Source: Candidatus Micrarchaeota archaeon (lineage in GTDB: Archaea; Micrarchaeota; Micrarchaeia; Anstonellales; Bilamarchaeaceae). From it: 45,354 nt of DNA. The stretch covers positions 13,526 through 58,879 of the forward strand of contig JAHFFJ010000003.1 of NCBI GenBank assembly GCA_023248035.1, in the 5' to 3' direction. Of this stretch, positions 17,701 through 38,774 are shown piece by piece. The position numbers and the translations under genes are program-made. Under the pieces are notes generated by a model. That model did no database searches. It saw only the letters and a program-made list of their open reading frames with translations, and had not been told where the DNA came from. Each line of letters begins with the position of its first letter. Positions within the stretch are counted from its first letter, which is position 1.

Positions 17701-20700
17701 TTTAATGCACTTGGATTTTTGTTTAATGAACCATTTGGTGGAGGACCAGGGCCCCGAGTGAATAAAGTAGAAGTCGAATATAAGAATGCAATTGAATTAC
17801 GTGCAAGAGCATTGCAAAACTTTAGTGCAGAATTAAATCGAGGTAAAACTACAGCCGTGTTTTCACAACTTGAAGCTGACCCTACCGGAGTGTTAGGCTT
17901 CTACATAAAAGCGCATGAGGATTCATTAGGCGCAATTCTTGAAGGCTCCCCGGATGCAGGAGTTAAGAAAGCGCGGATAGCATCGATTATGGAGCAGTCA
18001 ATATTCTACATCAACACCACCCAGCTCTATCAGGGCAAAGCTGGAGATGGAAGCACGTATGGTGAATTGCAAACTGGAGTATTCATGCTTGCAAGCAAGG
18101 CGTTACGTGGAAATGCTGATGAAAGCCAAGTTGAAGCAAAGTACCACGAACTTAGTGAACTTGTAAAGAGTAATGACCAGATTAGTAGTGCAATAAAAGT
18201 TGGGGGGGCATTGTCACTTAATCTGGTTAATTTCTTAGTTCCCGGATTTGGAACTTATTTATCGACCGGGGCATTTGCAGGAATGGCAACTGATCAGGCT
18301 ATAACAGACTACAGAAGAGAGGGTACCTTATCACCTATGACAATGGTGCATCTTGGATTAGCAGTACTTCCATTGAAATTCGCAGTGCTTAAAGGTTTTG
18401 CAAAATCAAGGGCAGGAGCAGCACTATTAGCAGCAGAAAGTAGTAGTTTAACTAGAACAACCGAGCTTCTTGAAACTGGAGAAAGTTGGTCTAAAGCAGG
18501 CAGAGTAATCAATATTGTTGAGCGCCCCCTTATCGGATATTTCATGCTTGCTGGGGGAGGTGCTGCATATGAATCTTATAAGGAAAAGGATTGGGCGAAC
18601 TTCATACTAAATGCAGGAATGTTGGTTGCACCATTAGTACCTCACGTAGCAAAAGGCTATGAGAAAGCAAGCGAGTATATCGCACTTAGAAGAGCAGGAC
18701 TTGAAACAGTTGAAGAGGGTTATACTCACAAAAATCTTGCAGGCAAGATCTATACAGCAGCGCAGGTAGAAGTTGCATTGAGGCTTACAGAACGTATGAA
18801 AGAAAATGCAACGCTACGTGGTACTGATGATGTTAAACGAATGGAGATGGCACTTCGCCTGGTAGATTCCCAGCAACCAGTTCCTATTCCAAAAGAGGTA
18901 TCTGGAGTTCCAAACAGACCGGCAAATGATGTGGAACAACCTAAAGTTGTCATAAAACTAACCGAGGTCCCATTAACTTCAGCAGAAACACTTGCAGCCA
19001 GCCTTCAGGCTCCAGATGGGCTTTTCACATTCTTAAGAGAATATTTCAATCCTGCAACAACAGGAAGTGCGATGGCAAAAATTGCATCACTTCGTGAAAT
19101 TTATCCAGATACTTATTCAGGCATAAGAAAGGTGATAAATTCTATTGCAGAAAATGATGGGGCAAGAAATGCAATAATGAATGCAACGGGACCGCGCGAT
19201 CCCAATGTACAAATGCAGCAGGCACTTAGGAATGGCGCATCTCAAATCGGAAAACTACTCACTCCACCAGAAGCATTTGCGATGCCCGAAGTCCTGGCAG
19301 CAACAGGAACATATGGCCAGCAACTTCGTGTAGTACCTCGATTAAGGGTGGTTGGAGATGAGGTGCGTGCAACTGATCAAGCAGCACCACCAGGACCCAA
19401 TGCAGAAGTTGCTGCTCAGGATGGTAGATCTGCACCAACTGTAGTGGGAAGAGCGAGGCAGGCAGTAGCTCGAGTTATTCTTGGTAAAAAACCAGATTTA
19501 AAAACACCAGAACCACCAACAAAACTTGGTGAACTTCCAAAAACATTGATTGATGGTGCACAGAATATTCCAACTGAAAGTTCAGCTCAAATAGTAAAAG
19601 CAGCCTATGATGTTTACATAAAAGGAGCAATAGGTGATGTACCGCTAAGTCCTGAGGGAAAGGCAATTTATCTGGAAATAATAAAGAAATTATATTCTAA
19701 GGCAGTACGTAGCGAACTTGAAAAAGATGCAACCACAACAAAAATGAGAAAATGGTTAGATGATAAGATTGGCGCAACTGTAGATGCAAGAGAGGTTGAA
19801 AAAACAAGGCTACGGAGAGCAGGTGGAAAAATAATAAGCCCTGATGAACTGGAAAAAATAATTGATCTTGTAGGTGGAGCGCAACCAGTAGATAGTATAT
19901 CGACACTACTTAATGTCACCCTCAATCCTGCAGAGAGAGCAGCGCTTACTCTTAGAAGAGTAGATAGTTTACCCCCATCTGCATTGGATGGTCTTGTTAG
20001 TGAAGTACGTAGTTCAGAAGCTGCAGCAATACAAGCACTTGATATTGCTTTAAGTCCAGCGGCAAGAGCAATGCGAGTGCAGGTAATTCAAAAGGTAGGA
20101 GTGGTAGAAAGTTTGGATAGTGCTATGCTCGATGGGATGAAAGAAAGTAAAGAGATACTAGCTATAGTTAGGCAACAAGGAGAGGCAAAATACGCAAACG
20201 ATCCGAACCCACGATTACGCGACAAAGCGCCTGCTGATGGAGAAGCAGCCGTAAACGCATTCAAAGCAGCCACCACTCTGGATGATGCAGTTAAGTTATT
20301 ACCCAATTACATGGCAAGAGAATTGCAAAGTCTCCTTGGAGCAAGAAATGAATTTTCAGCTGCTTACAGTTTTGCAGAAGCAAATAGAATGGTTCTTGCC
20401 CGGGTGAGTGAAGGCGAAATAGGAAGGGCGGAGAGAGGAAGACCTATTGGGCCAGGTGCCATGAGAGCATTATCTTCTGGTGGCAAGAAGACATTAAATT
20501 TAGCAGGAACGGTTTTAGGTTATCTTTTTGATCCCGCAGGATTGGGTCATGGGGTATCTTTAGTGCGTGAGGCCCCGGTAGGTGGAAAGGTAAGAACAGG
20601 TTTAGGAAGGGCAGCTCGCGGAGTACCTTGGGGGATTGCCCAATTTGGAATCGGATATTATGGTTATGGTGCGTGGATGCGCTATGTTAAAGACGCACCC

Positions 20701-22896
20701 GAACGCGAGAAAATAATTCTAGAAATGGCACAGCAATATTACGGAAAAGTTTCTTTCGATAATGCTGGTTTCTTAATGACCAAAGATGGTAAAAGAGTGC
20801 GAGCGGACATAAGCCTTGGTCAACCTAAATCCGATGATTTACGAGTTACCAGCCGTCAGGGATTGAAAACCGCACTTGCAGATGAAACCCCAACTGTGAT
20901 CAATCCATCCAAACTGGACGAGATGATAAGTCAGTCAAAAGTTATGGCAGAAAAAGTTAGTGAACTAAATGATTATCTGGCAGCTGCATTAGGCCCAGCT
21001 CCTGGGAAAGTAGCCTCAGTAGTTAAAAAAACTCCAGATGAGGCAAAACAAGCTTTGACTGATAGTCTTGCTAAAATGGGCATAACCATAGCTTTCGAAA
21101 AATTAAGAGCAGAAATGGGAACAAAGAAAGAATTGGACATTGATTTACTTATAAAATTGAGAAAAGGCAAATACGGAGACTGGCAAAATGGAACGATGTT
21201 CACTCGTGCGCAGGCAGTTGCCTACCAGTTCTGCATTGATTCAGGAATGCTTGCCAATGAGGCAATGGAAAAATATCCATTCCTGCTTCAAAACAAGGAT
21301 CTCTTTGAATTCCTATGGCAGAGTACAACCACTAGGGTGATGCCAGCATCCTATGTTAGTAACGTTATTGCAGCACTTGAAGCTACCGCCCAGCTTGGAA
21401 ACGCTCGAGCTGATCCCGCCAAATTTGATAGTAACATGACTGCATGGGCAAAAACAAAAAACTTCATATTGGAAGCTCCAATCAGACCGCTTTCTTTCCT
21501 GAGCATTTTTGATAGGCAAGCTACAGAAGATATAGCAGGAGCTACAAAGACCGGATTTTTTGGTTTGGTTACTGCTAATCGAGCGAATGCTGCAGCAATG
21601 CAAAAATTGAATGACTTTGTAATAGATAGCAGTGAAAGAATATATGGTAACCCCTCAGATCTTGCAAAAATAATATTTGACACTGATCTTTCAAAGATAA
21701 ATCCCCTTCTCAATATAGCCAGAATAAGCCAACTAGTTAGGGATGGAAACACAACTGAACTAGAGTTGATACTTACAGGAACCGGAATCACACTAGAGCA
21801 GCTCGAAGCAACAAAAACAAGAGAAGGAAGAGATATTAGACTCTCAGACTTGAAAGATCCGATAACAAAAATACTGCAACCACTTGGAATATCATTTGAG
21901 GATATGCAGGCATATATCATAAGGCACAATAGAACGGATATCAACTTAGTAGATATTGCAAAACTACGTGGATTTGTTGGACCTGCAATGCTGGCAGAAA
22001 TCGATCCAAGAATGCGAGATTCACCTGAACTCGTCGCATTTGTAGGTAACAATTCGGATGGAACCGATCGCGGAGTTTTGAGATTTGTAAAAGATGGTCA
22101 AAAGCAGATGATAAAGCAGGATAAAACTTCCTCGCTTTATGAGATTCTTCAGGATCTCGCAACCAATACAACAGATAAAAAACCAGAAGAAATCTATGCT
22201 ATGAAAAGTGCAGTAAAAGATGAAAAAGTAGTTGGCGGTGGGAAGTTAGTACCTACCGGATATGCTGCAGATAAAGAGGATGTTTATCAGACAGAAGGAC
22301 TTTGGAGAGGCCCTACAGCTAGTAAGATTCGAGGTACCGCTCCTGGAAAAGAACTTACCGATGCAGAACTCGAAACCAGATCACAAAGCATATTCCAAAG
22401 GAGATATCTTCCTGATTATGCAGGTCAGCAATTTAAAGCAGATAAACCAAAAGAAGCCGAATTAAGCCCGCTCGAAATAGAGGCGAATAAATTTTATAGT
22501 AGTGAAAGAGGAAGTGAATTAGCTGGTCTGATAGAGGGCATAATAGCCCGAATGTATATAGATCAGAAAGGGGATGGACAACTTATTCGCGATGCATTTA
22601 CTCCCCAGAGAAGAGCCGAATTAGATACGGCAGCAGATATTGAAGCAGATAAAAAAATTACAAATACAGAGCAAAAACTAGAAACGCAGGCAAAAAGACG
22701 GGCGATGCGTGCAGTAATGAGTGCACTTTATGACACCATAAAAAGTACTGAGGCTGCAGATAAAAATAAGGTAGCTAGTTGGGGAATGGTCATAAGTGGT
22801 TCTGATGAAGAGATAAAAGTAACAATAAGCGATACCCGAAGAAGTGAAACCCCCATAAAGCAGTTTATAATCGGAGTTTTAAAGGTGGATAAATGA
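14710..22896 (+). CDS. orphan giant protein C (2728 aa), mostly helical, with a central cluster of 4-5 hydrophobic helices
   Basis: Uninterrupted 8.2-kb ORF preceded by a strong SD, with no N-terminal signal peptide. Hydrophobic cluster at about aa 1160-1312 (GGALSLNLVNFLVPGFGTYLSTGAFAGMA; MTMVHLGLAVLPLKFAVL; PLIGYFMLAGGGAA; FILNAGMLVAPLVP). A second Gly/aromatic hydrophobic patch lies at about aa 1927-1992. Confidence 0.9.
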   Translation: MAGELIRKDQTAEKPIVIPRRTPVLDDTENKNLEAAMNKAGIAISDIVNHAHVVEKRIPVGLEIKKEIVELKTTILALKKEIVPNVPVLGEQYAIDLEYIEKIVNRAEKSFTEKRWVECVDLLRQARKMIGAMPEVFGVQREVILMGYPIEMGPEKLDRFLNAIAGSLHDFGTGNERRAKFILDLTRHYIKYGGIYTIKNDLVVAERDRLVDTTIARGLASRKNVRYTDYDAAVDRDALAAFRKTAEIIADQIRQENTRIFRLWRADISAILTERVDETTRKRYESFGKELDAMLVRLRTAQTAGKITSDELNEIATRYFTLSGRETADERGERIVQSAMMIGTPKALDGTAGWFAQRAIDAVAERRYGVAELALAMTLYINASGQKNASKDKYYKQVTDVIRNNTEPNSKLIAELEALTFFHRVERVKKRQPKSPQLARMMEVQKTALEYIAKGKPEDGRTLIAMGQRYLDIFTANGKTSPAITIIEGALDQAINGKETFLQFNNGVSLYNFTLDTGKLRTLASEWGAGLSHGREFVEKICGRVEQLAANGDTWEARKVMTYLLMYSDAVIRLGEIKGGKVVGHRPQFSGKGMESALDAAAAGQKTVGGKKVENAFMDGWNANQIEYVIIEARRISDLAQKRKVGSETIIEAMKVATQRGEQAKKDESLLPDALRLVSYAGEFYGLLEKNKNEGWRYQLITSSVEGYRKGGKDILDAIRMEAQAETDQDLDAAANLFEVGMARVDSTKQTVVMLLHDFTQVKLTLNTLVSQQRDQTNLKRLVAFEQDYSADLILKNDIANRSKGTINQHLSAMESAAKAGDFEGYKRARAALERRVELVSTQSEKYQLMAAVAGLENAKKDLIGLYQKHFGIDQLKTVIDLSLMSDDQLAALANTTGSTPGENLRNRFAGLELRRHQLIAKIRESGRTELKLPEALKKEFMALVTDYDSERRVAIAYHEISMQLKLNDSYRESVFHSDHAMRATVLQELDESKKHLFNALGFLFNEPFGGGPGPRVNKVEVEYKNAIELRARALQNFSAELNRGKTTAVFSQLEADPTGVLGFYIKAHEDSLGAILEGSPDAGVKKARIASIMEQSIFYINTTQLYQGKAGDGSTYGELQTGVFMLASKALRGNADESQVEAKYHELSELVKSNDQISSAIKVGGALSLNLVNFLVPGFGTYLSTGAFAGMATDQAITDYRREGTLSPMTMVHLGLAVLPLKFAVLKGFAKSRAGAALLAAESSSLTRTTELLETGESWSKAGRVINIVERPLIGYFMLAGGGAAYESYKEKDWANFILNAGMLVAPLVPHVAKGYEKASEYIALRRAGLETVEEGYTHKNLAGKIYTAAQVEVALRLTERMKENATLRGTDDVKRMEMALRLVDSQQPVPIPKEVSGVPNRPANDVEQPKVVIKLTEVPLTSAETLAASLQAPDGLFTFLREYFNPATTGSAMAKIASLREIYPDTYSGIRKVINSIAENDGARNAIMNATGPRDPNVQMQQALRNGASQIGKLLTPPEAFAMPEVLAATGTYGQQLRVVPRLRVVGDEVRATDQAAPPGPNAEVAAQDGRSAPTVVGRARQAVARVILGKKPDLKTPEPPTKLGELPKTLIDGAQNIPTESSAQIVKAAYDVYIKGAIGDVPLSPEGKAIYLEIIKKLYSKAVRSELEKDATTTKMRKWLDDKIGATVDAREVEKTRLRRAGGKIISPDELEKIIDLVGGAQPVDSISTLLNVTLNPAERAALTLRRVDSLPPSALDGLVSEVRSSEAAAIQALDIALSPAARAMRVQVIQKVGVVESLDSAMLDGMKESKEILAIVRQQGEAKYANDPNPRLRDKAPADGEAAVNAFKAATTLDDAVKLLPNYMARELQSLLGARNEFSAAYSFAEANRMVLARVSEGEIGRAERGRPIGPGAMRALSSGGKKTLNLAGTVLGYLFDPAGLGHGVSLVREAPVGGKVRTGLGRAARGVPWGIAQFGIGYYGYGAWMRYVKDAPEREKIILEMAQQYYGKVSFDNAGFLMTKDGKRVRADISLGQPKSDDLRVTSRQGLKTALADETPTVINPSKLDEMISQSKVMAEKVSELNDYLAAALGPAPGKVASVVKKTPDEAKQALTDSLAKMGITIAFEKLRAEMGTKKELDIDLLIKLRKGKYGDWQNGTMFTRAQAVAYQFCIDSGMLANEAMEKYPFLLQNKDLFEFLWQSTTTRVMPASYVSNVIAALEATAQLGNARADPAKFDSNMTAWAKTKNFILEAPIRPLSFLSIFDRQATEDIAGATKTGFFGLVTANRANAAAMQKLNDFVIDSSERIYGNPSDLAKIIFDTDLSKINPLLNIARISQLVRDGNTTELELILTGTGITLEQLEATKTREGRDIRLSDLKDPITKILQPLGISFEDMQAYIIRHNRTDINLVDIAKLRGFVGPAMLAEIDPRMRDSPELVAFVGNNSDGTDRGVLRFVKDGQKQMIKQDKTSSLYEILQDLATNTTDKKPEEIYAMKSAVKDEKVVGGGKLVPTGYAADKEDVYQTEGLWRGPTASKIRGTAPGKELTDAELETRSQSIFQRRYLPDYAGQQFKADKPKEAELSPLEIEANKFYSSERGSELAGLIEGIIARMYIDQKGDGQLIRDAFTPQRRAELDTAADIEADKKITNTEQKLETQAKRRAMRAVMSALYDTIKSTEAADKNKVASWGMVISGSDEEIKVTISDTRRSETPIKQFIIGVLKVDK

Positions 22897-25361
22897 CAGC
22901 AAGCGTATCATTATCCGGAAACCAAATAGTAATATTTTGCGACAAGGGAGGCTTATCAAAAAGCAGGTCTACTGGAATAATGATTGATACCAACAACCCA
23001 CAAAACATAGCTGCACAGATAGAGAGTGCAAAAAAAGCAGCAGCTGCATTTTTTAAAACTTTTAATGGTGGCGATGCTGATGTGATGGCAATAAATGCAA
23101 ATGCAGCTGCCAATGCCATAAAGAAGAGTCTTGGAATTGCTGATACTAAAGCAGAGCCAGTAGCACCTCCAGTTGCAAAAGCTCCTGCTCCAAAACAAGT
23201 GGCACCGAAACCTCAACCATCCACTCGAACTGAACAAAAAGTGCCTCCAAAAAAAGAGGCAGCAAAACCTGGAAACCCCGCTCCTGAACCGAAAGCTGCC
23301 GAACCAAAACCCAATATGGGAGGATGGAGGCCACTTAGAAGCAATGAGGTTTTACCTGAAGTTCGTGCAGTAGCAACTCCATTGCAAGGTAAACTCAAAC
23401 AAGGAGAATATCAACAGCAAACAGTAGGTACATTTAGCTATCGTTTCCGTGCTGAGCAACACGATCCAAGAGTACCAAATGGCATAAGCATTTACATAAT
23501 TCAAACACAATACGATCAGCTAAAAAAATACCTCGAAAAACTGGGAGCAGGAACGAATCCGGTAGATTCCACCCCACGCCCAACAATATCTGTGGAATGG
23601 ATACAACAGCAACTTCGCGATTCAAAAGATGATAGAAAAGGTTTAGCAGCAGCAACTTTAGCCCATCAAAATCGAGAGTATGTTGATGGTTACATTTCCG
23701 GTAATAGGAAAGAAACCACAGTAGCTTTATTTGACGCCCTTTCAGATATACCGAGCTTTAAACTTTATTTGGATTCAGTTGCCTCAAGAAAAGTACTTCC
23801 GGAATTTATAGATCTGCAAAAATCGCTCACTGAAAATCGAGGAAAAATTGAAGATAAGCAAGTAAAAGCTGCAGATTTGTACATAAGATATTTCTTATTC
23901 GGATTTGGTGCAATAAATAACCCCCAATACAATAAGGAAGTAAACCAGATTACTGCGATAATAAATGGATTAAAAGAATCCGATCCATCTGGCCAAGTAC
24001 TTATGCGAATTTATGGTTCTGGATCGGTAGATGGTGATACATTAACATCAGCATTACTTTACATAAGAAGATGGAATGCAACTCATCCAAAAAGTGGCAT
24101 CGTAAAACCAGATGAACAGGTAGCTTCTTGGAACGCACCAAAACAGGCGATGCCAGAACAAAAAATAACTGCAGGGGATGCATTTAGCCATCCAAGAATG
24201 ATTATAGTTGGAGATTCTATTTTTGCTGGGGATATAATGACCCCAAAATTACGGGCTCATCTTTTAACTGTTGATCAAAAAGCCACATTATTGAACAAAG
24301 CAGCTTCCAGTGCTCATCTTGAGGATATAAAAAGGCAGCTAGATGCAGCATTAGCTGATAAAAGTTCGAATATTATACTTATTGACGGGGGAGTTAACGA
24401 CATTGGTGCCAAACCAGAAGACATAATAAAAAAAATTGCAGCCATGCGCGATAGCGCATTAGCTGCGGGAAAAGTGGTGATGGTAGCAAAGCTTACGCCT
24501 TGGGGTAACTCCAGGTTTTGGAAAGAAAACTTACAAGAAACCTGGGAGAAGGTAAATGCAGAGATTACAAAATGGAATGATCCGCAAAAAGGAGTTTATG
24601 TAGTTGATTTTGACTGGCTTGGAGAGGGCAACCCCCCGCACATGAAACACGAGTATGCTAGCATAAGCAGCAAGGGAGAAACAGACTGGCTTCATCCAAA
24701 TACCAAAGGAAGGCAGGAGATGGCAGATTTCATATTTAGGATGATGAGTGCACGAACTACCAGCGGGTTTGCGGAAGGAAACGTGAATGTTCTGCCAGAT
24801 CTCTACCAAAAAGTTGCATTGGCAACACCAGAAGGCCTAGTAAAAATAGTTAGGGATAAATCCCAGAAAGTAGAGGATTTCGAAAAACAAAATAAAGATA
24901 GTATAAGAAAAACTTTTGATAGTGCATTTAATGAACTGCTTCATGAAAAAACCAAACCAGTTGGCCGAAATTTTATGACTTTCATACTATCGCAAACAAA
25001 ATACCGTGCCCTTGCAATGGCTGCAACAAGACTAAGTGATGAATCAAAAGAAGAGGATAGAAAGTTGGTTGCACAAGCAGTAGGAGAATTCTTAGCGAAA
25101 GAGGCGACAAATCCTAAATTCAAAATCGACCTTGCAGTTCTCAATGATAATAAGGCTTTTGGAGCGGGAACTATAAATGAACCTGACATGCGAACACTCA
25201 CTGCAATTGCGGTTTATGGCTGGAGAGTGAAGAATCCCCAGGCAGCTGGAGGAGAATGGGGAAGAGCACTTGGCATAGAGCCTCCCAAGGAGATAAAGGT
25301 AGAGCCACCAGTTGTTGAAAAAAATGCTCCACCACCAGAAAGAAGAACATTATCTTTCTGA
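22893..25361 (+). CDS. multidomain protein D (822 aa): N-terminal domain, Pro/Ala/Lys-rich linker, unknown domain, SGNH/GDSL hydrolase domain, C-terminal helical region
   Basis: ATGA overlap with gene C. SGNH blocks: I MIIVGDSIFAGD (aa 436-447), III LIDGGVNDIG (aa 496-505), V DWLHPNTKG (aa 598-606). The linker is aa 85-140 (EPVAPPVAKAPAPKQVAPKPQP...PEPKAAEPKP). Confidence 0.85.
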   Translation: MTASVSLSGNQIVIFCDKGGLSKSRSTGIMIDTNNPQNIAAQIESAKKAAAAFFKTFNGGDADVMAINANAAANAIKKSLGIADTKAEPVAPPVAKAPAPKQVAPKPQPSTRTEQKVPPKKEAAKPGNPAPEPKAAEPKPNMGGWRPLRSNEVLPEVRAVATPLQGKLKQGEYQQQTVGTFSYRFRAEQHDPRVPNGISIYIIQTQYDQLKKYLEKLGAGTNPVDSTPRPTISVEWIQQQLRDSKDDRKGLAAATLAHQNREYVDGYISGNRKETTVALFDALSDIPSFKLYLDSVASRKVLPEFIDLQKSLTENRGKIEDKQVKAADLYIRYFLFGFGAINNPQYNKEVNQITAIINGLKESDPSGQVLMRIYGSGSVDGDTLTSALLYIRRWNATHPKSGIVKPDEQVASWNAPKQAMPEQKITAGDAFSHPRMIIVGDSIFAGDIMTPKLRAHLLTVDQKATLLNKAASSAHLEDIKRQLDAALADKSSNIILIDGGVNDIGAKPEDIIKKIAAMRDSALAAGKVVMVAKLTPWGNSRFWKENLQETWEKVNAEITKWNDPQKGVYVVDFDWLGEGNPPHMKHEYASISSKGETDWLHPNTKGRQEMADFIFRMMSARTTSGFAEGNVNVLPDLYQKVALATPEGLVKIVRDKSQKVEDFEKQNKDSIRKTFDSAFNELLHEKTKPVGRNFMTFILSQTKYRALAMAATRLSDESKEEDRKLVAQAVGEFLAKEATNPKFKIDLAVLNDNKAFGAGTINEPDMRTLTAIAVYGWRVKNPQAAGGEWGRALGIEPPKEIKVEPPVVEKNAPPPERRTLSF

Positions 25362-25459
25362 TTGTCAACTTTCTCGCCCCGCCTTTTTGGAATGCACTTG
25401 GACTGGCATTTTGAGGAGCCGTTAGATTTTTATCATAGTGTGGTTAATAGACAATAGAT

Positions 25460-26587
25460 ATGACACTAATTCAGTCTGGAGTGAAATTAGAATATTCCAA
25501 AGGAGATGCAGGAATTATTCGCAACAGACGTCCTTTTCTTAATCCAAGAATGATGGCACTTGGGGATGGACGGGATGGCATCAATCCTGCGACATTTATA
25601 GAAAGAGTACGCAATAAATTTTTCCCCCTAACTGCAGATCTGGAAAGGGTGGATATGGAATTTTTATCTGCAATGAATCGCGGGGCAAAAACTCTCAATT
25701 TTTTAATGGGTGAATATTTACCTGATAGATTATCCGATTTAAAAGTAGGCCATTTTAGCGAAGAAACCAAGTTAGAAGACTTGATTAGAGAAGCACGAAG
25801 AAGATATCGATCACTAGCAGGAACAGGAAGTGCGGAAAATAAACGCTCAATATACGAATTAATACGAGCAATTGAACTGGGCCACCAAATACTTAAGGTG
25901 GATACCGAAAAAGAAGTCCAGCTTTCCTTGAGGCATTACCAATCACTTGTAGAATGGTTCAATAAGTTCTTGGGAATTACTAGTGGAGTACCCTGCGATA
26001 GACTTCCATTTAGGAATATTTTCAATACCACAATAGATGTTGATCTTTATGGCGAAGATGATCAGGCATTTCACTCACGATTAAAATGCCTTACTTCGGA
26101 TGGAAGGATAAAATATGGTTCAATTATTATGAAAACTTATCTCGATTTACTAGATGAGGGATCTAAACCAAGGTATAGTGCAACAAAAGATTATACTGGT
26201 GTAGAATTTTTAGTTTCAAACGAAAAAGAGGCAAATGATCTTGCGGAGGCCTTTAGGTACACCAACCCCATGAGATTGTTGGAAGGATTTAAGCAACGTA
26301 AAAGAGCATCGGAGATAAAAGACAATCCAGAAGCCAGTCCTGCATTTGGACTGACAAAATTCATCTTAAGAATTCCGGTAAAAGTCGAACCAATAAAAGG
26401 CCATCCACTAGGTGATTTGTTGTGCCAATTGCTTCCAGTAGAGGTGCAGATATTAACATTAGAGGATCAACATATTAGAGCAAGCAATCCTGATGCAAAA
26501 CATGAAAGCTACAAAAAACGTCAGTTCGAAAGAGTAGTTCCAGGACTTTTCCCAAGAGAGATCTATAGGAAGGAGCTTTATAGTTAG
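25460..26587 (+). CDS. protein E (375 aa) with RelA/SpoT-synthetase-like (RSH/SAS, nucleotidyltransferase-fold) motifs in its C-terminal half
   Basis: GRIKYGSIIMK (aa 215-225; compare G-R-x-K-x(2-3)-S-I-x-x-K), KDYTGVEFLV (aa 243-252; compare D-x-x-G-x-R-h-h) and LPVEVQILTLEDQH...AKHESYKK (aa 325-353; compare EVQIRT..QH.WAE..H..YK) occur in the canonical order and spacing. Confidence 0.45.
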   Translation: MTLIQSGVKLEYSKGDAGIIRNRRPFLNPRMMALGDGRDGINPATFIERVRNKFFPLTADLERVDMEFLSAMNRGAKTLNFLMGEYLPDRLSDLKVGHFSEETKLEDLIREARRRYRSLAGTGSAENKRSIYELIRAIELGHQILKVDTEKEVQLSLRHYQSLVEWFNKFLGITSGVPCDRLPFRNIFNTTIDVDLYGEDDQAFHSRLKCLTSDGRIKYGSIIMKTYLDLLDEGSKPRYSATKDYTGVEFLVSNEKEANDLAEAFRYTNPMRLLEGFKQRKRASEIKDNPEASPAFGLTKFILRIPVKVEPIKGHPLGDLLCQLLPVEVQILTLEDQHIRASNPDAKHESYKKRQFERVVPGLFPREIYRKELYS

Positions 26588-26661: not shown

Positions 26662-27192
26662 ATGTTCAAAAAATTGAACTTATTTTCAAAAACAGAAATG
26701 GAACTTTTAACTTTTATTGCATCTAAAGATGGCGAATTTTATGAAAGGGAGATAACACGACTTACTGGTATAAGTGTTGGTTCAGTAAATAACATTCTAA
26801 AAAAATTTACTGACCTGCATTTTGTAAACAAAAAGAAGAAAGGACGGATGCAATTTTATAGTAGAAACCAGGAAAACCCTTTAATACGGCAGTTTAAGGT
26901 TTTCATTATAATATATGGCCTAATTCCATTTTTATCAAAAGCCTCACCACATAGCAAACGGATAATACTTTTTGGAAGCTGCGCTAAGGGACTTAATACC
27001 GAAAAAAGCGATATAGACTTAGTTATAATTTCAAAAGAAAAAGAACTGCTAAGAAGAATATTTGACCAAGAGGCAAGAATACAATTAATAGTTCTAGATT
27101 CTGTTGAATATGCTGAGCTTGAACAAAATGATAAACCACTTTATGAACGCATTGAAATGGGGATAGAATTACATGGTGAAGGGTATGGATGA
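26662..27192 (+). CDS. winged-helix + minimal nucleotidyltransferase (MNT) protein, antitoxin-like partner of HEPN
   Basis: N-terminal wHTH (EREITRLTGISVGSVNNILKKF), then ILFGSCAKGLNTEKSDIDLVII (the G-S-x(n)-D-x-D NTase motif). It overlaps the next gene by 20 nt. Confidence 0.75.
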   Translation: MFKKLNLFSKTEMELLTFIASKDGEFYEREITRLTGISVGSVNNILKKFTDLHFVNKKKKGRMQFYSRNQENPLIRQFKVFIIIYGLIPFLSKASPHSKRIILFGSCAKGLNTEKSDIDLVIISKEKELLRRIFDQEARIQLIVLDSVEYAELEQNDKPLYERIEMGIELHGEGYG

Positions 27193-27616
27193 GAGATTTC
27201 AAAGGTGCGTTCAAGAGGGGAAATTAGTAAAGGGAGAAATAGAATTAGATCTAGTAAAGAAAGAACTTGATGCGGCTCAATCTGATCTAAAAATTGCAGA
27301 AAAATCTTTAAGTGAGCATAACTTCAAGTGGGCAACAATTCAAGCTTATTATTCAATGTTCCACACCGCAAAAGCACTTGTGCTTAGTAAAGGTTATAGG
27401 GAAAAAAGTCATCAATGTCTTTCAGTTGCACTTAAGGCACTTTTTGTAGATAGTAGCCTTTTAAAGAAAAATCATTTCGATCATTTTAGAGACTGCATGA
27501 ATCTTAGGCAGGATGCAGACTACGGACTTATTTATTCAGAAACATCAGCAGTTGGAGCAGTGAATTGGGCAGAAGATTTTTTAGAAGCTGGAGGGGCCAT
27601 CTTAAGCAAAAGTTAA
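27173..27616 (+). CDS. HEPN-domain protein (toxin-like partner of MNT)
   Basis: WATIQAYYSMFHTAKALVLSKGY...SH and the LRQDADYG motif are typical of PF05168-type HEPN. The gene is paired with the MNT gene. Confidence 0.7.
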   Translation: MVKGMDERFQRCVQEGKLVKGEIELDLVKKELDAAQSDLKIAEKSLSEHNFKWATIQAYYSMFHTAKALVLSKGYREKSHQCLSVALKALFVDSSLLKKNHFDHFRDCMNLRQDADYGLIYSETSAVGAVNWAEDFLEAGGAILSKS

Positions 27617-28166: not shown

Positions 28167-28649
28167 ATGGCAGCTTTGCATAAAATAACTGATCTGCGAG
28201 GAAGAGAAAGAAAAATTAACTGTATTGCATGCTCAATTCAACAAGGAAAAGTTGAAAATCCAGGTAAAATTGCAGAGACTGAATATTTTGTTGCAGAACA
28301 GGATTATGAGGTACCTATTCCAGCTTTTGTTATTGTTGCTGCAAAACGACACATATATAGTATTGACGAACTAACAGAAAACGAGCAGCAGGATCTGATT
28401 AAATTTATTTTTAGGTTACGGAAGATGATGCGAAAGTTAGATATCGAAAACATTTATCTAATACAGGAAGAAGATACTTCAAACAGCCATTTCCATATAT
28501 GGTTGTTTCCGCGATTCAAATGGATGCATAAGATTGGGACAAAAGTGCAATCACTCAAACCAATAATGGATTATGCTCATGAAAACTTAAAAGTAGAAGA
28601 AGTAGATTATGCTACTGAAAAAATGCGCCAGTGGATGAAAATGCAATAA
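28167..28649 (+). CDS. HIT-family (histidine triad) nucleotide hydrolase/transferase-like protein
   Basis: N-terminal C-x-x-C (CIACSI), then NSHFHIWLFPR, which matches the H-phi-H-phi-H-phi-phi triad with the first His replaced by Asn. Confidence 0.6.
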   Translation: MAALHKITDLRGRERKINCIACSIQQGKVENPGKIAETEYFVAEQDYEVPIPAFVIVAAKRHIYSIDELTENEQQDLIKFIFRLRKMMRKLDIENIYLIQEEDTSNSHFHIWLFPRFKWMHKIGTKVQSLKPIMDYAHENLKVEEVDYATEKMRQWMKMQ

Positions 28650-28678: not shown

Positions 28679-31600
28679 TCAGAAACTCACTTTTGCATAT
28701 CCCATAATCCATAATGGCATTCTGCCATTGGTTATGCTTGTTGCATAAGGCTGCATGGTTTCTTCCTGAGTAATATCAGCAGCTACATTAGGCCAGGTTC
28801 CGCGTGCTCCCGTTAATGAGAATGTATATGAACTACCAATTAATTCTCTTTGTTGATCACTAAAAGAAACCCCTACACCTGCCCGGAACACAAACTGGTT
28901 GGTAAGGTCAGATGCAGAACTAACAGTGCTTTTGTAGCCTGTATATCCTGGGTAGGTTGCCTGTTCACTAGCAACATAAAAGTCCCGCCTTGATTCAACA
29001 CCACCCTCAAAGAAGAGATGGAGTGCTAGACTGCTTCCGCTTGATATATTGGCTCTTGCCCAGGTGTAACCAGTACCAATTGTAGTACGGCTAAAGTTTC
29101 CAAGATCACACTTGCCTTCGTTTACGCAAAGATCGTGTTCTTCCTGGGTAGTTACGATTACTTTTCTTTCAGTGCGATTAAAGGCGATGTAGAAATAATG
29201 ATTACTGCTCATTTTTTCGGTTGTAATGCCGCTCACTCTTGCAGTGGTTGCTACTTTCCATGATTTCCAGTCTTCGTTTCCAAACTCACGTATTCCATAA
29301 AGCGCACCTGCAAGCCAGTCTCCTTTTTGATCCTGAAGGAGTTGAACAAGACCACCAACGGTGAAGTTCTTTCCAGCTTGGTATGTGGTTCCAAGAATTT
29401 CAGAATTCAAAGGCAAAGTTATTCCTCCAACCACACGGGCTGCAGTAAGGAAGCTCATTCTGCGATCTCCGGAAAATACAAAGTCATAGCCATCACCACT
29501 GCGTTTTATTTCAACTTTGACTATACCCCTGCCAATGAAATAGCCTTTCTTTTGCCAGTCTTCAAGATCAAGGTCATTACCAAGACGAAGAGAGTAACGT
29601 GCACCTGGATTTGCAGCATCACCAGTAACTAGCATATAAAGATGATCATAGCGAGGTGCCTTGGCTCCAAGTGCAGCTTCTTTCTGTAGCTGCGCCCCTA
29701 GAATTACATCATAATTTTCAGGATGCCTTGCAAGGATAGGATCGGGAAGCGATTGCAACACAACAGCGGCCATGTTCTGCTCAAATAGCTGGGCAACTTC
29801 ACCGCCAGATAATTTTTCTGAACCTTGAGACTGTTTTATAGGCGCATCAGCGATTGCCTTTAGCACTCCTTCTGAATTCTTTTTGAACTGTGAATCCATT
29901 CTCTTTTCTGGTAGGAGTACCCATTCAAGTGCAACTGGAGAATGACGAATCACACTCACAAGATCTTTACCATATTTAGATTCGAGTCTTTGTACATCAG
30001 GTGTAGGAGCACGAAGTTCGCTATAGATATCTGCAAGAGCCTTTGCAAGATCAGCAGTCTTGTCCTCTGATTTTATAGTTGGCTTAAAGTTGACCATCAT
30101 TTGCCTAACTGCGGGCTCTTCGAGCCTTGCACTTATTTCCCGATCGATTTCAGAAACAGGACGAACAACCCAACTAAGATTAGCCTGGCTGCCCCTAACT
30201 GCAGTTACAAATGGTTTTCCATAAGCATCCTCAAGGCGGCTGAAGTTTGAAAAGTCTGAACCAAATTCAACATAGCAGTCACGAAGTGCGCGAACGGGTT
30301 GTGCCTGCTTAGAAACATGCAACTCGTGTTCATAACGATTTACTTGGATTGCTGGCCAGTCCACCACTCCAAAGCCACCATAAAGACTGGTGTATGGAGT
30401 AGATTTTTGTCTTTGCACATCAAGACGAGCAGTTCCAGTTGCTGCATCTCCACTTTCAGTTATGACAACAGGTGCGTATTGGAATGCGTGTGCAGCAACA
30501 TCGAAATATGTGCTGGTTGGCCTTCCGAAAAGTACAAGTCCATAAAGGCTTCCATAAGCAGATGAAAGATCATCGTATGCAGGATTCTTACCTGCTGCAG
30601 CTACAACATAAATTCTTGTCTGTTCTCCATCATACCCATAACCTAGAGCAAACTTCCAGATGTCCTGTTTCATTGCATTTTGCATATCCTTAGATAGACC
30701 TTCAAGTATCGATTGCTCGTTTTCCGGTGAGGTAGTAATTTCATTCATTGCCCGATCAATGCGATCGGAAATTGCACGGAAACCAGGAACCCGCTCACCA
30801 CCAACAAGAATGCCATGGCGATTGGCCCAGTACATCATAAGCACTGAAACATAATTAGGATTGAGCCTTGGAACAGTCTTGCCATTTGCATCGACTTCTT
30901 GTGTTGAAGTAGAATAACTACCATCAGGATTTTTCACTACCCAATTCTCAAGCTGGCTGTACATGTAGCTTGCAGAAACCAGCCACCCAACATTGCGTGC
31001 TTCATCTTCCGACCAGTGATAGGCATGAACAAGACTATTTACTGTCTTGGTGTACATTTTGTCGGTTTCCGCACTCACTGCACGGAAATCCTGTAAAAGG
31101 TCGACTTCGTGATGAGAAAGTGTAAGTCCATATGCAGTAGTACGTGTTTTTGTAGGACGATCTTCACGACGATATCTTGCACCAATTGTTGGTTGCGGAC
31201 CTCCTCCTGCAAGCCTTAATTCCCAGCTTGATTCTAGTGGGTCAATACGCACCGTACGCCACATAAGTTCTCCTGTTCCCTCTGACCAGTGCGAACCTGT
31301 TATTGAAGGAGCAGCAGTGGGATTTTTTGGATCAACTGCAGCACGATCAAGAACCTGAGTGCCGCGATAGAATCCTGCATAAATGCTTCTTTGTTTCTTG
31401 CTGCTAAGAAGATCAGTAATTGCCATACCAGCAGCCTGCTCGACATGAAGGGGATCCATGGTGTTGATGTTTCTTACAAGTTCACCAAAAGTGAGGGCAG
31501 CAAAATTATCACCAACTCCACGAGGTATAGTTATACCTACAGCAGCACCATCAAAACCGTGGGCTGCCGAATCGCTAGTAAGCATTTTACTTCCCATAAA

Positions 31601-34600
31601 TTTAAGCGAGGCAAGAATGTTGTCCTGATTGGTATTGCCAAAAAGGTAGTTGAGTATTTGTACCGAAGTATCATTTCCAACTGCATCCCGGCTGCTATTA
31701 AGTCCATATGCAACCTGATAGATCCCGCCTTCTGGTGTAAGGATATAGGCACGGGTCTTTAGCTTGTCGTTCTTGGTCTGGACAACAGTACCAGCACTAT
31801 CCTTTAGTTCTGGAACATGTTCGCCTGCAACAAGAAGGAGCATGTCAGTTCCGCTATTACGAGCTATTCTTGAATAACTTTCAAAAAGTCCAGAAGTTTT
31901 TAATGCAGTAGTAAGGCTTTGTGAAGTTGGATCTGCCATTGTCCCGCCGGAAACTTCTTTATCAGTAGAAGCAAATTCGTGATGGAATAAAGCACGGGAA
32001 CGAATAAGGTCATCTGCACCTGGAACACCAAGTCTTATTCCCCCTGCCCTTGCCTCCACATCTGCGTTACGAGTGACTGTTGAGGTTGCAGTTTTTATTG
32101 GTGGTGCATCTGGTTGGTCGGCTAGTGGAGGTGCACTATAAGCATCATCAGTTTTCGTCTCACCAGTATAAATGGCACGTTCAGTTACACCGCCAGTTAT
32201 ACCACGATGAACCCCAAGAGCAGCAGCACCCGCACGACTGGTGGTAGCCGCCCGGTCACTTTCAATAGAACCAAATCCACCAGCTTCTGCATTGTGACTA
32301 AGCCAATAGCTGCTGTAGTCGGTGGGCATTGGACCAAAGAGCTTGGTGAGGCTGCGAATTATTGTTGCTTCACCTATTGCATCGATCTTAAATGGTGAAG
32401 GCACTCTCAAACGGAATAATCTTTCAGTTGGTGGTCTTAGCCCTTCATACATTCTTGTGAAACCTGCTCGCGCACCGGAATCTAATGTAAAGCCACCAGG
32501 AACTGGAAGGCTTGGGCTAGTTGGTGCAGTTGGACTAAAGTCAATTGAAAATGGGAATGGGTTGACACCATAAAGATTTGGTATTTGCGGGGGTTGGGCG
32601 AAAAGAGGAGAGGGTTTGTAACGATAGAGGAATGGGTTTAGGTAGCTTTCATCAGTTAGAGGTTCTGGTATTCTCCTAAGTTCATCCTGAAGACGGGTGT
32701 GATCGTAGGTACTTGTGATGATGGGAAGATTCTTTCCAATTTTTTCGAAGACTTCGAGGAAATATTTACGATTAATTGAAGTGCTATAAGCAAGGTCACG
32801 CATACCATCCTGATAGCGGGTGGAGAAGAGGTTGTTAAATGCAGTAATTGCTGCGACCAGGCTCTTTTCATCAGGACAAACTTCAATAAGAGCTGGAAGG
32901 ACATTGAGAAGATAGGGACCAACAAGATAAGGATCCCGGTGAGCAATAAGAAGTACTGAATCCATGGTTGCCCGTGCAGCCTGGGAACTGAATGCAGAAT
33001 CTGTTCCTCCGATATGTTCAAGAGCTACACCAAGATAAAGTGCATCAAGTATGCTTAGCTGATTTCTTAGGCTCTTGATAGAATCATCACTATACTCCCA
33101 TCCAAGCGAACTCACATTGGTTCCTTCTTTTTCTCTCGACATGAGATAGTTGGTCTCGAGCTGATCGTAGAATTTATGTCCGGCAGCAACAAGCGACCGT
33201 CCGGATTCTGAAGTTAAAAATGATACCATATCTTCTGGTGAACGTAAGCCTCTTGAAGCAACTGAACCAGTTAGTGATAGGTTGTAACGTTTTGCAAGAC
33301 GTCCAACACTTTTATTGAGCAAATCGAGGTTTATGTATTGCCCAAATAGATAGTCGCTTGCACCAAATTCCGATCTATAATGTTCTACTGCATGACGAAG
33401 GTTGATTTCAAAACTACCTACCTGACCTGGTGTTGAATCAACTGCATTGGAAAATGAAAGCGCGGATTTAATATCAACATAAACCTGTGGCACAACATCA
33501 GCAACATGATGGAAATTATACATAAAGTTTGCACGTCCAGGCCCAGGGCCTTTATCAAATGCAGCATTAAGTCCCTCCTCTAATCCTGGTTTGAGGTTGT
33601 GAAGATCATTTGGATCTTTTATCGAGCTAAGCTCTTTCTGGTTGGCAAAAACAAAACGTACCAATTCCGGACCGTATGCCTCCCGAAGCTCATTGACCAC
33701 CCTTATATAATCTGCTTTGTATGGCTCCGAATCTTGCGGAGTAGGTGCATGGGTAATTCCATCTTCATAAATTTTCACAACTGCATCATAAAGGTGGTTG
33801 TCCTGTTTTCGGTAGGCATGCATGAGTATCTTGTTAATTTTAGGAGGGATATCAGAAACTTTGAATGCTGGATTTTCAAGAACCCTAAGATCATGAAGAT
33901 TGCTTTCTACTCCAGCTACAAATGCTGACCCATATTGTTCATTAAGCCTTACACGATTGCGCTCATCCAGGCCTCCTGCCCTAAGTTCGGAATACAGCCT
34001 TCCAAGAACCTGAGGATAGGTCCGATCATCCATACTGTTTATGAATCGATAAAGTTCGGGAGTGGCACGATAAAGCACGCTTGCAACCACATCACCAATT
34101 GCAGATTGTTTTTCATGGGTGAGGTCTTTTTGTCCGGTACTTTCATACCATGCAAGGAGTCTTTGAAGAGTTACCGTATCCCCACTTGAAACTGAAAATC
34201 CTGAAGTGGAATTTATATCTCCGCCAGTTTCGGCAAGATGAATCATTGCAAATGCAAGTTCAGCAGCTTTCCTAAGTTCAAATCCGTTTACCATCTGATT
34301 TCTTAGTTGGTCCTGCTGATCACTGATTCTTTTTAGGGATTGGTGATCTCCGCTTGATTCAGCTGCTGTTTTGAGGCGTTCGTTTTCCCTCCTCCATTTC
34401 CATAGATGCTCACGTAAAACCGCTCTTGCTGGGACAAAAATATCTTCACCAAGCTGGCGTTCAACATCTTTAGCTGCAGCTTCCAGTTCATTATAAGTAT
34501 TGCTTATTTCTTGGATTTTATCGCTAATTTCATTGCCAGAAACAACTGGCCCGCTAGAAATCGTAACACGTGAGGTTACAGGATTGACAAAGAGCGTACC

Positions 34601-37211: not shown

Positions 37212-37246
37212 CTTTATACTATAGTAGTTATATTATTTTATACTAT
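37212..37246 (+). promoter_or_regulatory. putative promoter/operator of the wHTH gene: 10-bp direct repeat tttatactat x2
   Basis: tttatactat occurs at 37213-37222 (TATA-like, ~27 nt upstream of the ATG at 37245) and again at 37237-37246, overlapping the start codon. Both lie in the 178-nt region shared divergently with giant gene F. Confidence 0.35.
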
Positions 37247-38144
37247 GAAGATAAGTAACAGGGAGATAGAGATTCTAGATTACCTAATGGGCAGAAAAGC
37301 TACTTTCAAATCGGTTGCCATAACACTAGGGATAAAAAAATCCAACCTCACAAAATACATAAAAAAACTTGAAAGATACCGACTAGTTACTCTTAGGAGA
37401 GATGGCCAGCATAAAGAAATACATCTTGAGTATGCAATTTGGTTTGGTTTTTTTGGGGTAAGACAAACATTTCCAGAAATTAAACTAAAGGATATTTTGA
37501 TTGGTAGAGTACCGTTTCTTTTAAGCTTTATTAAAAATAGGCAAAAATTCAGGATACGGGATTTGGATATTCCTGCAGTATCTGCTAAGAAGATTTTAAG
37601 CAAACTTAGAAAAACAGGAATAATTTTTATGCCCACTAGAGGAGTGTATAGTTTGAGAGAAGAAGCTTTGCCTGCAGCTGAATTTTGCAGGGATGTATTA
37701 ATGCAGATGTATGTGGCAGAGGGTGAACATGAAATGGAAGATATAAAACAAGTATTTTTCTCATTTGATAGTGTGTTGGGGGTTGAGGTAGTTTTTGTCA
37801 CTGGACAGGAAAATTCGCCTAAAAATTATTGGCTTACATCTTATAGTGTGTTTCACAAATACGGCATAGATTTAATTCTTGCAGGAAAATATTATTACAC
37901 GAATATTAAACCTGATTTAGAGGATATAATAATTCATACTTTAGCTCTTAGCAGAGATATAAGAAGCATAGCTTACGTTGCTTCTCTTATGTTTAGGCAC
38001 AAATTTAGTGATAAATTGCTAAAAAAGAAGCAGCGTTTTGGCCTGAAAGAAGAATTCATAACGAAGCTGATCCAGTTTGTAGAATCAAAAAACGGGAAAA
38101 CTTTCGAAGGATTCCCTTCATGGGAAGAAGTTGAGGCGGTCTAG
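37245..38144 (+). CDS. winged-helix DNA-binding protein (AbiEi-like antitoxin/regulator candidate)
   Basis: N-terminal wHTH (REIEILDYLMGRKATFKSVAITLGIKKSNLTKYIKKLERYRLV). Its stop TAG abuts the ATG of the downstream nucleotidyltransferase gene. Confidence 0.5.
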   Translation: MKISNREIEILDYLMGRKATFKSVAITLGIKKSNLTKYIKKLERYRLVTLRRDGQHKEIHLEYAIWFGFFGVRQTFPEIKLKDILIGRVPFLLSFIKNRQKFRIRDLDIPAVSAKKILSKLRKTGIIFMPTRGVYSLREEALPAAEFCRDVLMQMYVAEGEHEMEDIKQVFFSFDSVLGVEVVFVTGQENSPKNYWLTSYSVFHKYGIDLILAGKYYYTNIKPDLEDIIIHTLALSRDIRSIAYVASLMFRHKFSDKLLKKKQRFGLKEEFITKLIQFVESKNGKTFEGFPSWEEVEAV

Positions 38145-38774
38145 ATGTTTGACGCAAAATATATCGATACCGAACTTGAAATCATTGGTTCACGAATTAA
38201 AAGACCGCTCAGCGTCTACCTTATAGGGGGCTGTGCCATGTCCTTCCGCGGACTGAAGGAATCAACAAAGGATATTGATATTGTTTTCAAAAATGACCTG
38301 GATTACGAGCTATTTTGCGATGCGCTCTTTGGAGCACAATATTTTGAACCATTTACTATAAAATCAGAACATGAAAACCTTAAAGCTGCAAGGATGTTCG
38401 AGAATAAAGATGGTTTTCATTTAGACTTGTTTGTTAAGCAAGTAGTAGGAAAACTAATTCTGTCAAAGTCAATGATTCAGAGGGCAGAAAAATACAAGCA
38501 ATACGGTAAACTAACGGTTTATATTCTATCAAGAGAAGATATTTTCCTTTTCAAGGGACTTGCAAGCGAAAGTAGAAAAAGAGACTTGGGAGATATGCAA
38601 ATTTTGTACCCAAACCTTAACTGGAAGTATATTGAAGCAGAATTGAGAACTCAAGCTTTGACAACAGAATTGATTCAACTGTTCATAAGGAGGCTTGATG
38701 AGTTTAGCAGGATTTACAGACTGGATGTACCGATAATGGCAAGGCTAAAGACAACGGTAAGGAAACTGAAATGA
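38145..38774 (+). CDS. Pol-beta-superfamily nucleotidyltransferase (AbiEii/DUF6036-like toxin candidate)
   Basis: VYLIGGCAMSFRGLKESTKDIDIVF (G-G-x(n)-D-I-D) plus the downstream acidic GFHLDLFV motif. The gene is translationally coupled to the wHTH gene. Confidence 0.5.
   Translation: MFDAKYIDTELEIIGSRIKRPLSVYLIGGCAMSFRGLKESTKDIDIVFKNDLDYELFCDALFGAQYFEPFTIKSEHENLKAARMFENKDGFHLDLFVKQVVGKLILSKSMIQRAEKYKQYGKLTVYILSREDIFLFKGLASESRKRDLGDMQILYPNLNWKYIEAELRTQALTTELIQLFIRRLDEFSRIYRLDVPIMARLKTTVRKLK

Follow-up and report, generated by a model that had tools for sequence, protein, structure and literature searches.

A DPANN archaeal protein family with a highly divergent RelA/SpoT synthetase-like domain

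Introduction

The stretch of DNA considered here, hereafter the window, comprises 45,354 nucleotides of a Candidatus Micrarchaeota archaeon (assembly GCA_023248035.1, contig JAHFFJ010000003.1, positions 13,526 to 58,879 of the forward strand) and is a piece of archaeal chromosome, which encodes fibrillarin, S19e, L31e, eIF6, prefoldin, FtsY and aTrm56. A complete gene located at 25460..26587 on the + strand codes for a protein of 375 amino acids, the C-terminal half of which is a remote homologue of the synthetase (RelA_SpoT) fold found in RelA/SpoT homologue (RSH) enzymes, a conclusion which is supported and holds at the level of the protein family. This kinship had been proposed in a preliminary description of the window, made from the sequence alone, on the basis of short motifs. 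All the quoted strings are exact matches in the open reading frame (ORF) and lie within 25937-26540, namely GRIKYGSIIMK (residues 215-225, nt 26102-26134), KDYTGVEFLV (residues 243-252, nt 26186-26215), VEVQILTLEDQH (residues 327-338, nt 26438-26473) and HESYKK (residues 348-353, nt 26501-26518). The features of the gene are the following:

25428..25435, + strand: TATA-like box TTTTTATC, ~28 nt before the ATG, inside the 98-nt upstream gap
25460..26587, + strand: complete gene, 375 amino acids plus stop, member of a DPANN family with ~68 representatives at 50% identity
25499..25972, + strand: N-terminal all-alpha domain, with helices between residues 14 and 171 (AlphaFold2 models)
26015..26584, + strand: C-terminal alpha/beta domain, RSH (RelA_SpoT) synthetase-like nucleotidyltransferase fold, residues 186-375 (Foldseek, profile searches, PF04607, hhalign)
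26078..26086, + strand: R207-L-K209, near-invariant basic pair in the strand that precedes the phosphate-binding helix, possible counterpart of the canonical beta1 R-x-K
26087..26110, + strand: C210-I217, variable mini-hairpin of eight residues, with DSSP bridges at L211 and I217 and variable alignment columns
26111..26134, + strand: K218-Y-G-S221-I-I-M-K225, start of the phosphate-binding helix, equivalent by alignment to SaRelP S84/K88 and RelSeq S247/K251
26189..26215, + strand: D244-Y-T-G247-V-E249-F-L-V252, DxxGxR strand, with the Mg-binding Asp and the Gly by alignment, and Glu for Arg
26324..26371, + strand: N289..S292-S293..F296...K300-F301..R304, equivalent of the beta3-beta4 "G-loop" and start of beta4, putative acceptor site
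26438..26458, + strand: V327-E328-V-Q330-I-L-T333, "EVQIRT" strand, with the catalytic Glu and the adenine-contacting Gln by alignment
26501..26515, + strand: H348-E-S-Y351-K352, H..YK helix motif, with the ribose-contacting His by alignment
26522..26566, + strand: Q355-F....P361..F-P365..I-Y369, conserved C-terminal tail, common to the sister group D1 (see below) and TIGR04552/04562

Assignment of the synthetase fold

Taken as a single sequence, the window protein finds no relevant match in Pfam, PADLOC, PHROGs or, with phmmer, the Protein Data Bank (PDB), and a weak C-terminal match to TIGR04552/TIGR04562 of NCBIfam is its sole signal. The assignment comes from the family to which it belongs. 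Scanned individually, 11 of the 17 close members match PF04607 (RelA_SpoT) at E<=1; in the family set of 62, the same model is matched by 33 sequences at E<=0.01, with a best value of 3.7e-6; no other Pfam family recurs among the members scanned in this way. Against all PDB sequences, the profile built from the 62 sequences retrieves Rel/RelA proteins as its six best matches (E 4e-5 to 5e-4), with S221/K225/D244/G247 aligned on RelSeq S247/K251/D264 (D265 in Rel_Mtb) and E328/Q330/H348/Y351/K352 aligned on "EVQIRT...AAHWxYK", E328 falling on E323 of RelSeq and E325 of Rel_Mtb. A profile of 17 sequences yields the same, weaker, alignment to Rel. When compared locally by hhalign with a RelA-domain profile, made of Escherichia coli RelA plus 24 related sequences, the family aligns over 156 columns with E 1.1e-4, and the sister group D1 reaches E 3e-6; setting the 17-sequence alignment against E. 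coli RelA alone brought no information.

The AlphaFold2 model of the full-length protein reaches a predicted local distance difference test (pLDDT) score of 86 and a predicted template modelling (pTM) score of 0.83. Searched with Foldseek against the PDB, it finds exclusively RelP, RelQ, Rel and SpoT at ranks 1-24 (prob up to 1.00, E from 5e-3), the top matches having template modelling (TM) scores of 0.43-0.46 when normalised on the target. Structure prediction had been suggested in the preliminary description as a check on the assignment, and these 24 best matches, all RSH synthetases, bear it out. RelA/SpoT proteins also occupy ranks 1, 2 and 6 in a viral structure library. The succession of predicted elements, i.e., beta(204-208), helix(219-232), beta(246-252), helix(255-266), beta(275-280), a loop, beta(298-308), beta(322-333), a helix and helix(348-363), agrees in its order with the small alarmone synthetase (SAS) topology of FaRel2 and RelP (PMC11782079).

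Retained catalytic residues

In SaRelP, R78 and R112 stack on the adenine of ATP, K80, K88, R91 and S84 bind the phosphates, D107 and E174 hold the Mg2+ ion, and H190 contacts the ribose (PMC5794853). The equivalent residues of FaRel2 are R64, R95, G93, E145, Q147, D90, K66, S70, K74 and R77, together with Y128 in the G-loop; among them, G93, E145 and Q147 are the adenine contacts (PMC11782079). Equivalents of the metal ligands (D244, E328), of the Ser/Lys helix (S221, K225), of the glycine (Gly247), of the E-x-Q pair (E328-x-Q330) and of the H..YK motif (H348, Y351, K352) are all retained in the window protein.

Across the alignment of 62 sequences, four residues never vary (K225, D244, F301, E328), and conservation of 90% or more is seen for R207, K209, Y219, S221, G247, E249, E275, K300, R304, Q330, H348, Y351 and K352. 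The equivalents of the Mg ligands, of the phosphate binders S84/K88, of the adenine contacts and of the ribose-contacting His belong to one or the other class, with counts of 62/62 for D244, 57/62 for G247, 62/62 for E328, 60/62 for Q330, 61/62 for H348, 61/62 for Y351 and 56/62 for K352. Because they are conserved across this alignment, the motifs are under selection and are not chance strings. The claim that the C-terminal half carries the RSH fold is thereby sustained, since the Asp and the Glu are present, together with the Ser/Lys helix and the H..YK motif, and the profile and structure matches agree. Regarding the three RSH-type motifs themselves, their conservation extends across the ~68 family representatives, with the exception of the Arg of "GRIK" (R216), which is not conserved. 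The retained E-x-Q, Ser/Lys and His contacts suggest that ATP would be the donor.

Members and hosts of the family

A word-indexed search identified 17 homologues sharing 30-100% identity, none of which (0/17) carries a precomputed Pfam domain; those with a source name are all designated "hypothetical protein", one of them from Woesearchaeota. When 1.8 billion cluster representatives were searched exhaustively with a profile, 149 matches were obtained, 68 of them below 1e-30 and, fragments aside, mostly displaying the full-length architecture of ~375 amino acids. Copies were also found by scanning the GTDB species genomes, in metagenome-assembled genomes (MAGs) of Micrarchaeota (57% identity), Woesearchaeota, Pacearchaeota, Nanoarchaeia and Nanoarchaeota. 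All the named organisms from which family members come are DPANN archaea.

The distant matches of the profile search split into two groups, D1 and D2, and PF04607 is matched by 16 of 54 distant proteins at E<=0.001 (best E 1.9e-7). The closest relatives of the DPANN family are the unnamed sister group D1 and the bacterial TIGR04552/04562 family, to which the D2 proteins truly belong (218-321 bits). The tail following the H..YK motif ("RQF...FP..FP..IY") occurs in the DPANN family, in D1 and in TIGR04552/04562, whereas canonical RSH proteins lack it.

Additional segments occur in some of these proteins. A Peptidase_S8 match occurs in one sequence of the 62-sequence alignment, and two D1 proteins, P0124 (866 amino acids) and P0141 (839 amino acids), possess an N-terminal extension of 650-700 residues ahead of the RSH-like domain; such domain fusions may offer a hint at function. 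The closest homologue in GTDB, with 57% identity (locus L004, Micrarchaeota MAG JACRGB010000001.1), shows an in-frame TGA at 5469-5471, at the position of a conserved Trp in "EWFNKF", in a frame which is otherwise intact. This could correspond to a recent pseudogene, to a sequencing error, or to a TGA read as Trp.

The N-terminal helical domain

The ~200 N-terminal residues had been left unassigned in the preliminary description, and the first ~180 remain so, since a separate AlphaFold2 model of this domain (pLDDT 83.5) finds no significant match in the PDB with Foldseek (best E 1.0, prob 0.14) and no Pfam family matches. A degenerate HD hydrolase of the RelA type was considered for this region and rejected, the best PDB match having an E-value of 1.0 and no HD match being obtained. 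The domain is common only to the family and to the sister group D1. In the 17 close sequences, P29, R74, G75, N80, Y132, R136 and D148 are invariant, and an "AMNRG" motif is recognizable. In the full-length model, it packs confidently on the enzyme domain (pTM 0.83).

Genomic context and promoter

Upstream of the gene, the window contains two giant ORFs and an 822-residue protein with a GDSL-lipase domain; downstream come an overlapping pair of minimal nucleotidyltransferase (MNT) and HEPN genes and then a HIT hydrolase. The conservation of these surroundings was appraised by comparing the window with 7 other independent loci (the loci L002, L003 and L005 belong to the same genome). All-against-all BLAST of the ORFs of these 8 independent loci leaves the RSH-like gene as the sole shared cluster. 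A conserved operon with the giant and GDSL genes upstream, or with the MNT/HEPN pair and the HIT hydrolase downstream, is accordingly rejected, as none of them recurs beside homologues. Elsewhere the gene lies beside housekeeping genes, among them those for ScpA, gyrase, RidA, FeoB and ribosomal proteins; the flanking genes are variable, frequently on the opposite strand (convergent or divergent) and 74-395 nt apart, and the downstream gene is usually convergent. A viral or mobile origin was also discarded, no relatives having been found in the IMG/VR viral contigs. No HD-type small alarmone hydrolase is encoded within the window.

A/T-rich, TATA-like boxes occur 25-33 nt before the start codon in 6 of the 8 loci (the window, L001, L002, L004, L006 and L008), and the sequence thus suggests that the gene possesses its own promoter and gives rise to leaderless or short-leader transcripts. 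The gene had been described earlier as the last of an operon and as a possible toxSAS or secreted effector. Against the first of these views stand the 98-nt gap with its TATA-like box, which is also found upstream of homologues, and an upstream synteny that is not conserved; against the second stand the lack of any conserved neighbour in the 8 loci, flanks that are often convergent or divergent, and the absence of viral relatives in the contigs searched. Neither an operon nor a two-gene toxin is supported, because no neighbours recur, a TATA-like box precedes the gene and no viral relatives were found.

Several other genes of the window deserve a description of their own. The pair located at 26662-27616 (+) associates a helix-turn-helix (HTH) and minimal nucleotidyltransferase protein (NTP_transf_2/Polbeta, 176 amino acids) with a HEPN protein (147 amino acids), the two genes overlapping by 20 nt, and is a typical MNT/HEPN toxin-antitoxin module. 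A second toxin-antitoxin-like pair, consisting of an AbiEi/MarR-like HTH protein (299 amino acids) followed by a DUF6036 nucleotidyltransferase (209 amino acids), occurs at 37245-38774 (+). The HIT-family nucleotide hydrolase/transferase (28167-28649, +), located 1.6 kb downstream of the RSH-like gene, might have unusual nucleotides as substrates, although no such gene adjoins the homologues that were inspected. Three ORFs of 1042, 2728 and 2795 amino acids (11194-14322 (+), 14710-22896 (+) and 28679-37066 (-)) have no Pfam match at E<=0.01, and the 822-residue ORF (22893-25361) is made of a Pro/Ala/Lys-rich linker and a GDSL lipase/acylhydrolase domain; all four may represent giant surface proteins of the DPANN type.

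Proposed function and alternative explanations

The reading which we favour, with a probability of about 0.6, is that of a stand-alone RSH-type pyrophosphokinase, probably catalytically competent, to which a helical domain has been added. On this reading, the ORF encodes a cytoplasmic two-domain enzyme of a previously unannotated DPANN family, in which residues ~186-375 form a highly divergent nucleotidyltransferase domain of the RSH synthetase type with its catalytic core kept, and residues ~14-171 a family-specific helical domain, packed on the enzyme and probably regulating or completing the active site. The most likely activity would depend on Mg2+ and move the beta,gamma-pyrophosphate from ATP onto the ribose 3'-OH of an acceptor, for which purine nucleotides and RNA 3' ends are the candidates. 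The donor site is modified, with Glu249 replacing the Arg of DxxGxR, as is the acceptor loop, and owing to these modifications the acceptor is probably not bound in the same way as GDP/GTP in RelP, RelQ and Rel. Such a gene would be transcribed alone and would behave as a chromosomal housekeeping or signalling gene, rather than as the toxin of a two-gene toxin-antitoxin system. What the analysis establishes is the homology, the fold, the conservation of residues and the lack of conserved neighbours; catalytic competence, ATP as the donor, the pyrophosphotransfer chemistry and the part played by the N-terminal domain are deduced.

A number of observations weigh against this interpretation. With regard to the fold, the window protein does not match PF04607 even at E<=10, so that the search with this model proposed in the preliminary description is negative for the protein itself and positive for more than half of its family; in addition, the Foldseek E-values are modest and the whole-chain root-mean-square deviations are large. 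With regard to the active site, position 249 is occupied by Glu in 57, Arg in 4 and Thr in 1 of the 62 sequences, Arg being limited to the four most divergent members. "D-x-x-G-x-[RE]" had been treated as an accepted variant, and this does not stand: Glu249 is a real departure, because the Arg of DxxGxR stacks on the adenine of ATP in characterised RSH enzymes. The beta1 Arg is either missing, position 216 being variable (K12 E11 S9 N8 ...), or displaced to R207. The third helix base is absent as well, L228 occurring where SaRelP has R91. Finally, at position 296, at the end of the beta3-beta4 loop, Phe (43/62) or less frequently Tyr (12/62) occurs, the window protein having a Phe where RSH enzymes have a Tyr.

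Two of the motifs concerned require some comment. The pair R207-x-K209 (R 59/60, K 60/60), nine residues upstream of R216, sits 8 residues further from the Ser than the canonical R-x-K-x-x-x-S-x-x-x-K spacing allows, and K218 is a Lys or an Arg in 44/62 sequences; the Lys of the RelA "RPK" is paired with K209 by hhalign and with K218 by HMMER. If the hairpin C210-I217 is regarded as an insertion, the canonical R-x-K-x-x-x-S spacing would be restored. As for the acceptor loop, "N..SS..F...KF..R" takes the place of "K.NGY.S.H", with K300 in 58/62, F301 in 62/62 and R304 in 57/62 sequences. Its equivalence to the G-loop is based on the hhalign of the sister group, in which the D1 Tyr equivalent to F296 pairs with the G-loop Tyr of RelA. 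Replacing Tyr by Phe at the G-loop position is the standard way of crippling FaRel2 (PMC11782079).

In view of these changes, the RSH fold may have been diverted to another job, as a nucleotidyltransferase or kinase-like enzyme using a different donor or acceptor (a small metabolite, a protein, a non-adenine nucleoside triphosphate) or as a nucleotide-binding regulator whose turnover would be low or nil. The two arginines that stack on adenine are absent or displaced, the conserved Glu249 brings an extra carboxylate beside D244 and E328, and another acidic residue, E275, is conserved. The acceptor loop has been remodelled, Phe taking the place of Tyr, and the nearest families (D1 and TIGR04552/04562) are functionally uncharacterised. 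We nevertheless hold such a diversion to be unlikely: strong constraint bears on residues specific to ATP-dependent pyrophosphotransfer in RSH enzymes (the E-x-Q adenine contacts, the Ser/Lys helix that binds the triphosphate, the His that contacts the ribose), and a pure pseudoenzyme is not expected to hold both metal ligands in 62/62 sequences. Less probable still would be a fused, single-gene toxSAS-like protein acting in growth arrest or defence, the C-terminal domain of which would pyrophosphorylate the CCA end of tRNA or produce (p)ppApp, the N-terminal domain serving as autoinhibitor or sensor by analogy with CapRel, itself a single polypeptide. An extra domain is indeed joined to the enzyme, CapRel appears among the structural matches, though weakly (rank 35, E 0.15), and the gene adjoins the MNT/HEPN pair, with a further AbiE-like pair 11 kb off. 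Moreover, tRNA-targeting toxSAS enzymes have no diagnostic sequence signature by which this reading might be excluded, and for that reason the class of acceptor is not readable from the sequence. However, PADLOC gives no match, the viral contigs contain no relative, and an antitoxin domain of the Zn-finger or YXXY type is lacking; the extra domain, situated at the N-terminus, shows good conservation across the family and confident packing (pTM 0.83), unlike fast-evolving sensor domains; the neighbours in other genomes are housekeeping genes (ribosomal proteins, ScpA, gyrase, FeoB), and the profile matches favour long Rel/RelA and housekeeping RelP/RelQ over toxSAS.

A chance resemblance, the protein being unrelated to RSH enzymes, might be invoked from the single sequence, which matches neither Pfam nor PDB sequences, and from Foldseek E-values that are not below 1e-3. 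It is effectively refuted by the convergence on RSH proteins only of the member-by-member Pfam scans, the PDB profile search, hhalign and the Foldseek searches of the PDB and of the viral library, as well as by motifs that align in order and catalytic residues that are invariant.

Beyond the RSH-type pyrophosphokinase preferred here, it is tempting, if rather speculative, to view the DPANN family, D1 and TIGR04552/04562 as a deep, unrecognised branch of the RSH enzymes making a product other than (p)ppGpp. The rebuilt sites, i.e., Glu for the stacking Arg, a Phe-type acceptor loop and a helical domain with conserved Arg residues, would fit with such a branch. Genome-reduced symbiotic archaea would then use this product, which could be a novel nucleotide messenger or an RNA pyrophosphorylated at its 3' end, to control their growth or in their relations with hosts.

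Significance

Signalling of the (p)ppGpp type is regarded as essentially bacterial, and (p)ppGpp was undetected in any archaeon as of PMC8646023. RSH enzymes had been called rare in archaea in the preliminary description, which is only partly true for DPANN: canonical RelA/SpoT annotations occur in several phyla, and RelA/SpoT, presumably canonical, is annotated in 19-69% of the genomes of four DPANN phyla (PMC8407392). RSH surveys have relied on SYNTH hidden Markov model cut-offs of 1e-4. Our search of the literature yielded no description of the family, TIGR04552 appearing only as an uncharacterised name, and the accessible part of the toxSAS survey supplements contains no DPANN taxa.

The family is a new, strongly divergent form of a known kind of enzyme, with two substituted functional positions and a new partner domain. 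It represents a conserved RSH-like family of DPANN archaea that looks catalytically intact and is missed by standard annotation, and it allows the synthesis of alarmone-like nucleotides or the modification of RNA ends in these organisms to be tested cheaply. The natural changes at the adenine-stacking Arg and at the acceptor Tyr offer a probe of substrate selection by RSH enzymes, and the family provides a first functional lead for the bacterial TIGR04552/04562 proteins. Proof of a non-canonical product would make the family far more interesting.

Comparison with known systems

The housekeeping enzymes RelP and RelQ and the SYNTH domain (PF04607) of the long Rel/RelA/SpoT proteins share with the window protein the fold, the order of the elements, the Asp/Glu pair, the Ser/Lys helix, the E-x-Q pair and the H..YK motif, at an identity of ~15% that lies below the Pfam threshold. 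The window protein differs from them by an 8-residue hairpin or shift in the R-x-K...S segment, by the addition of a ~180-residue N-terminal helical domain, which is not an HD hydrolase, and by its conserved C-terminal tail. In contrast to the long RSH proteins, it has no HD, TGS or ACT match in Pfam and stops 23 residues past the H..YK motif. The toxSAS proteins (FaRel, FaRel2, PhRel, PhRel2, CapRel, Tas1) resemble it in having a stand-alone domain of the RSH synthetase type outside the long-RSH architecture, whereas the window family lacks a conserved bicistronic partner, a fused antitoxin domain of the pZFD type and any phage association; according to Foldseek, their structural similarity to the window protein is weaker than that of the housekeeping SAS enzymes.

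The TIGR04552/04562 proteins, which are bacterial and not archaeal, come from a family named in Bdellovibrio and Myxococcus genomes and uncharacterised. Their C-terminal domain is homologous to that of the DPANN family (hhalign 99.2%, E 1.4e-19, residues 201-365, with the conserved tail included) and their size is alike (~350-380 amino acids), with a likewise unassigned N-terminal region for which hhalign detected no homology. They keep the Arg of DxxGxR, e.g., "DHVGVRF" in P0127, where the window family has Glu, and a long insertion separates their beta2 from the acceptor loop. The window protein is not a member of this family, because it scores 26.6 and 26.5 bits against TIGR04552 and TIGR04562, over its C-terminal 85 residues only, below the curated cut-offs of 125 / 140 bits. 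Group D1 (e.g., the metagenomic P0092, P0095 and P0097), which falls below all NCBIfam cut-offs, differs from the DPANN family by an identity of only 18%, by a variable position 249 (M, K or T, not Glu) and by large insertions ahead of the catalytic domain. Yet the likeness of both groups extends over the full length, the helical domain included (hhalign 99.9%, E 1.5e-33, 346 columns), and they have in common the motifs "SIL.KM", "D..G..F.V", "N..SS..Y/F...K", "PVEVQI", "H..YK.RQ" and "FP..IY".

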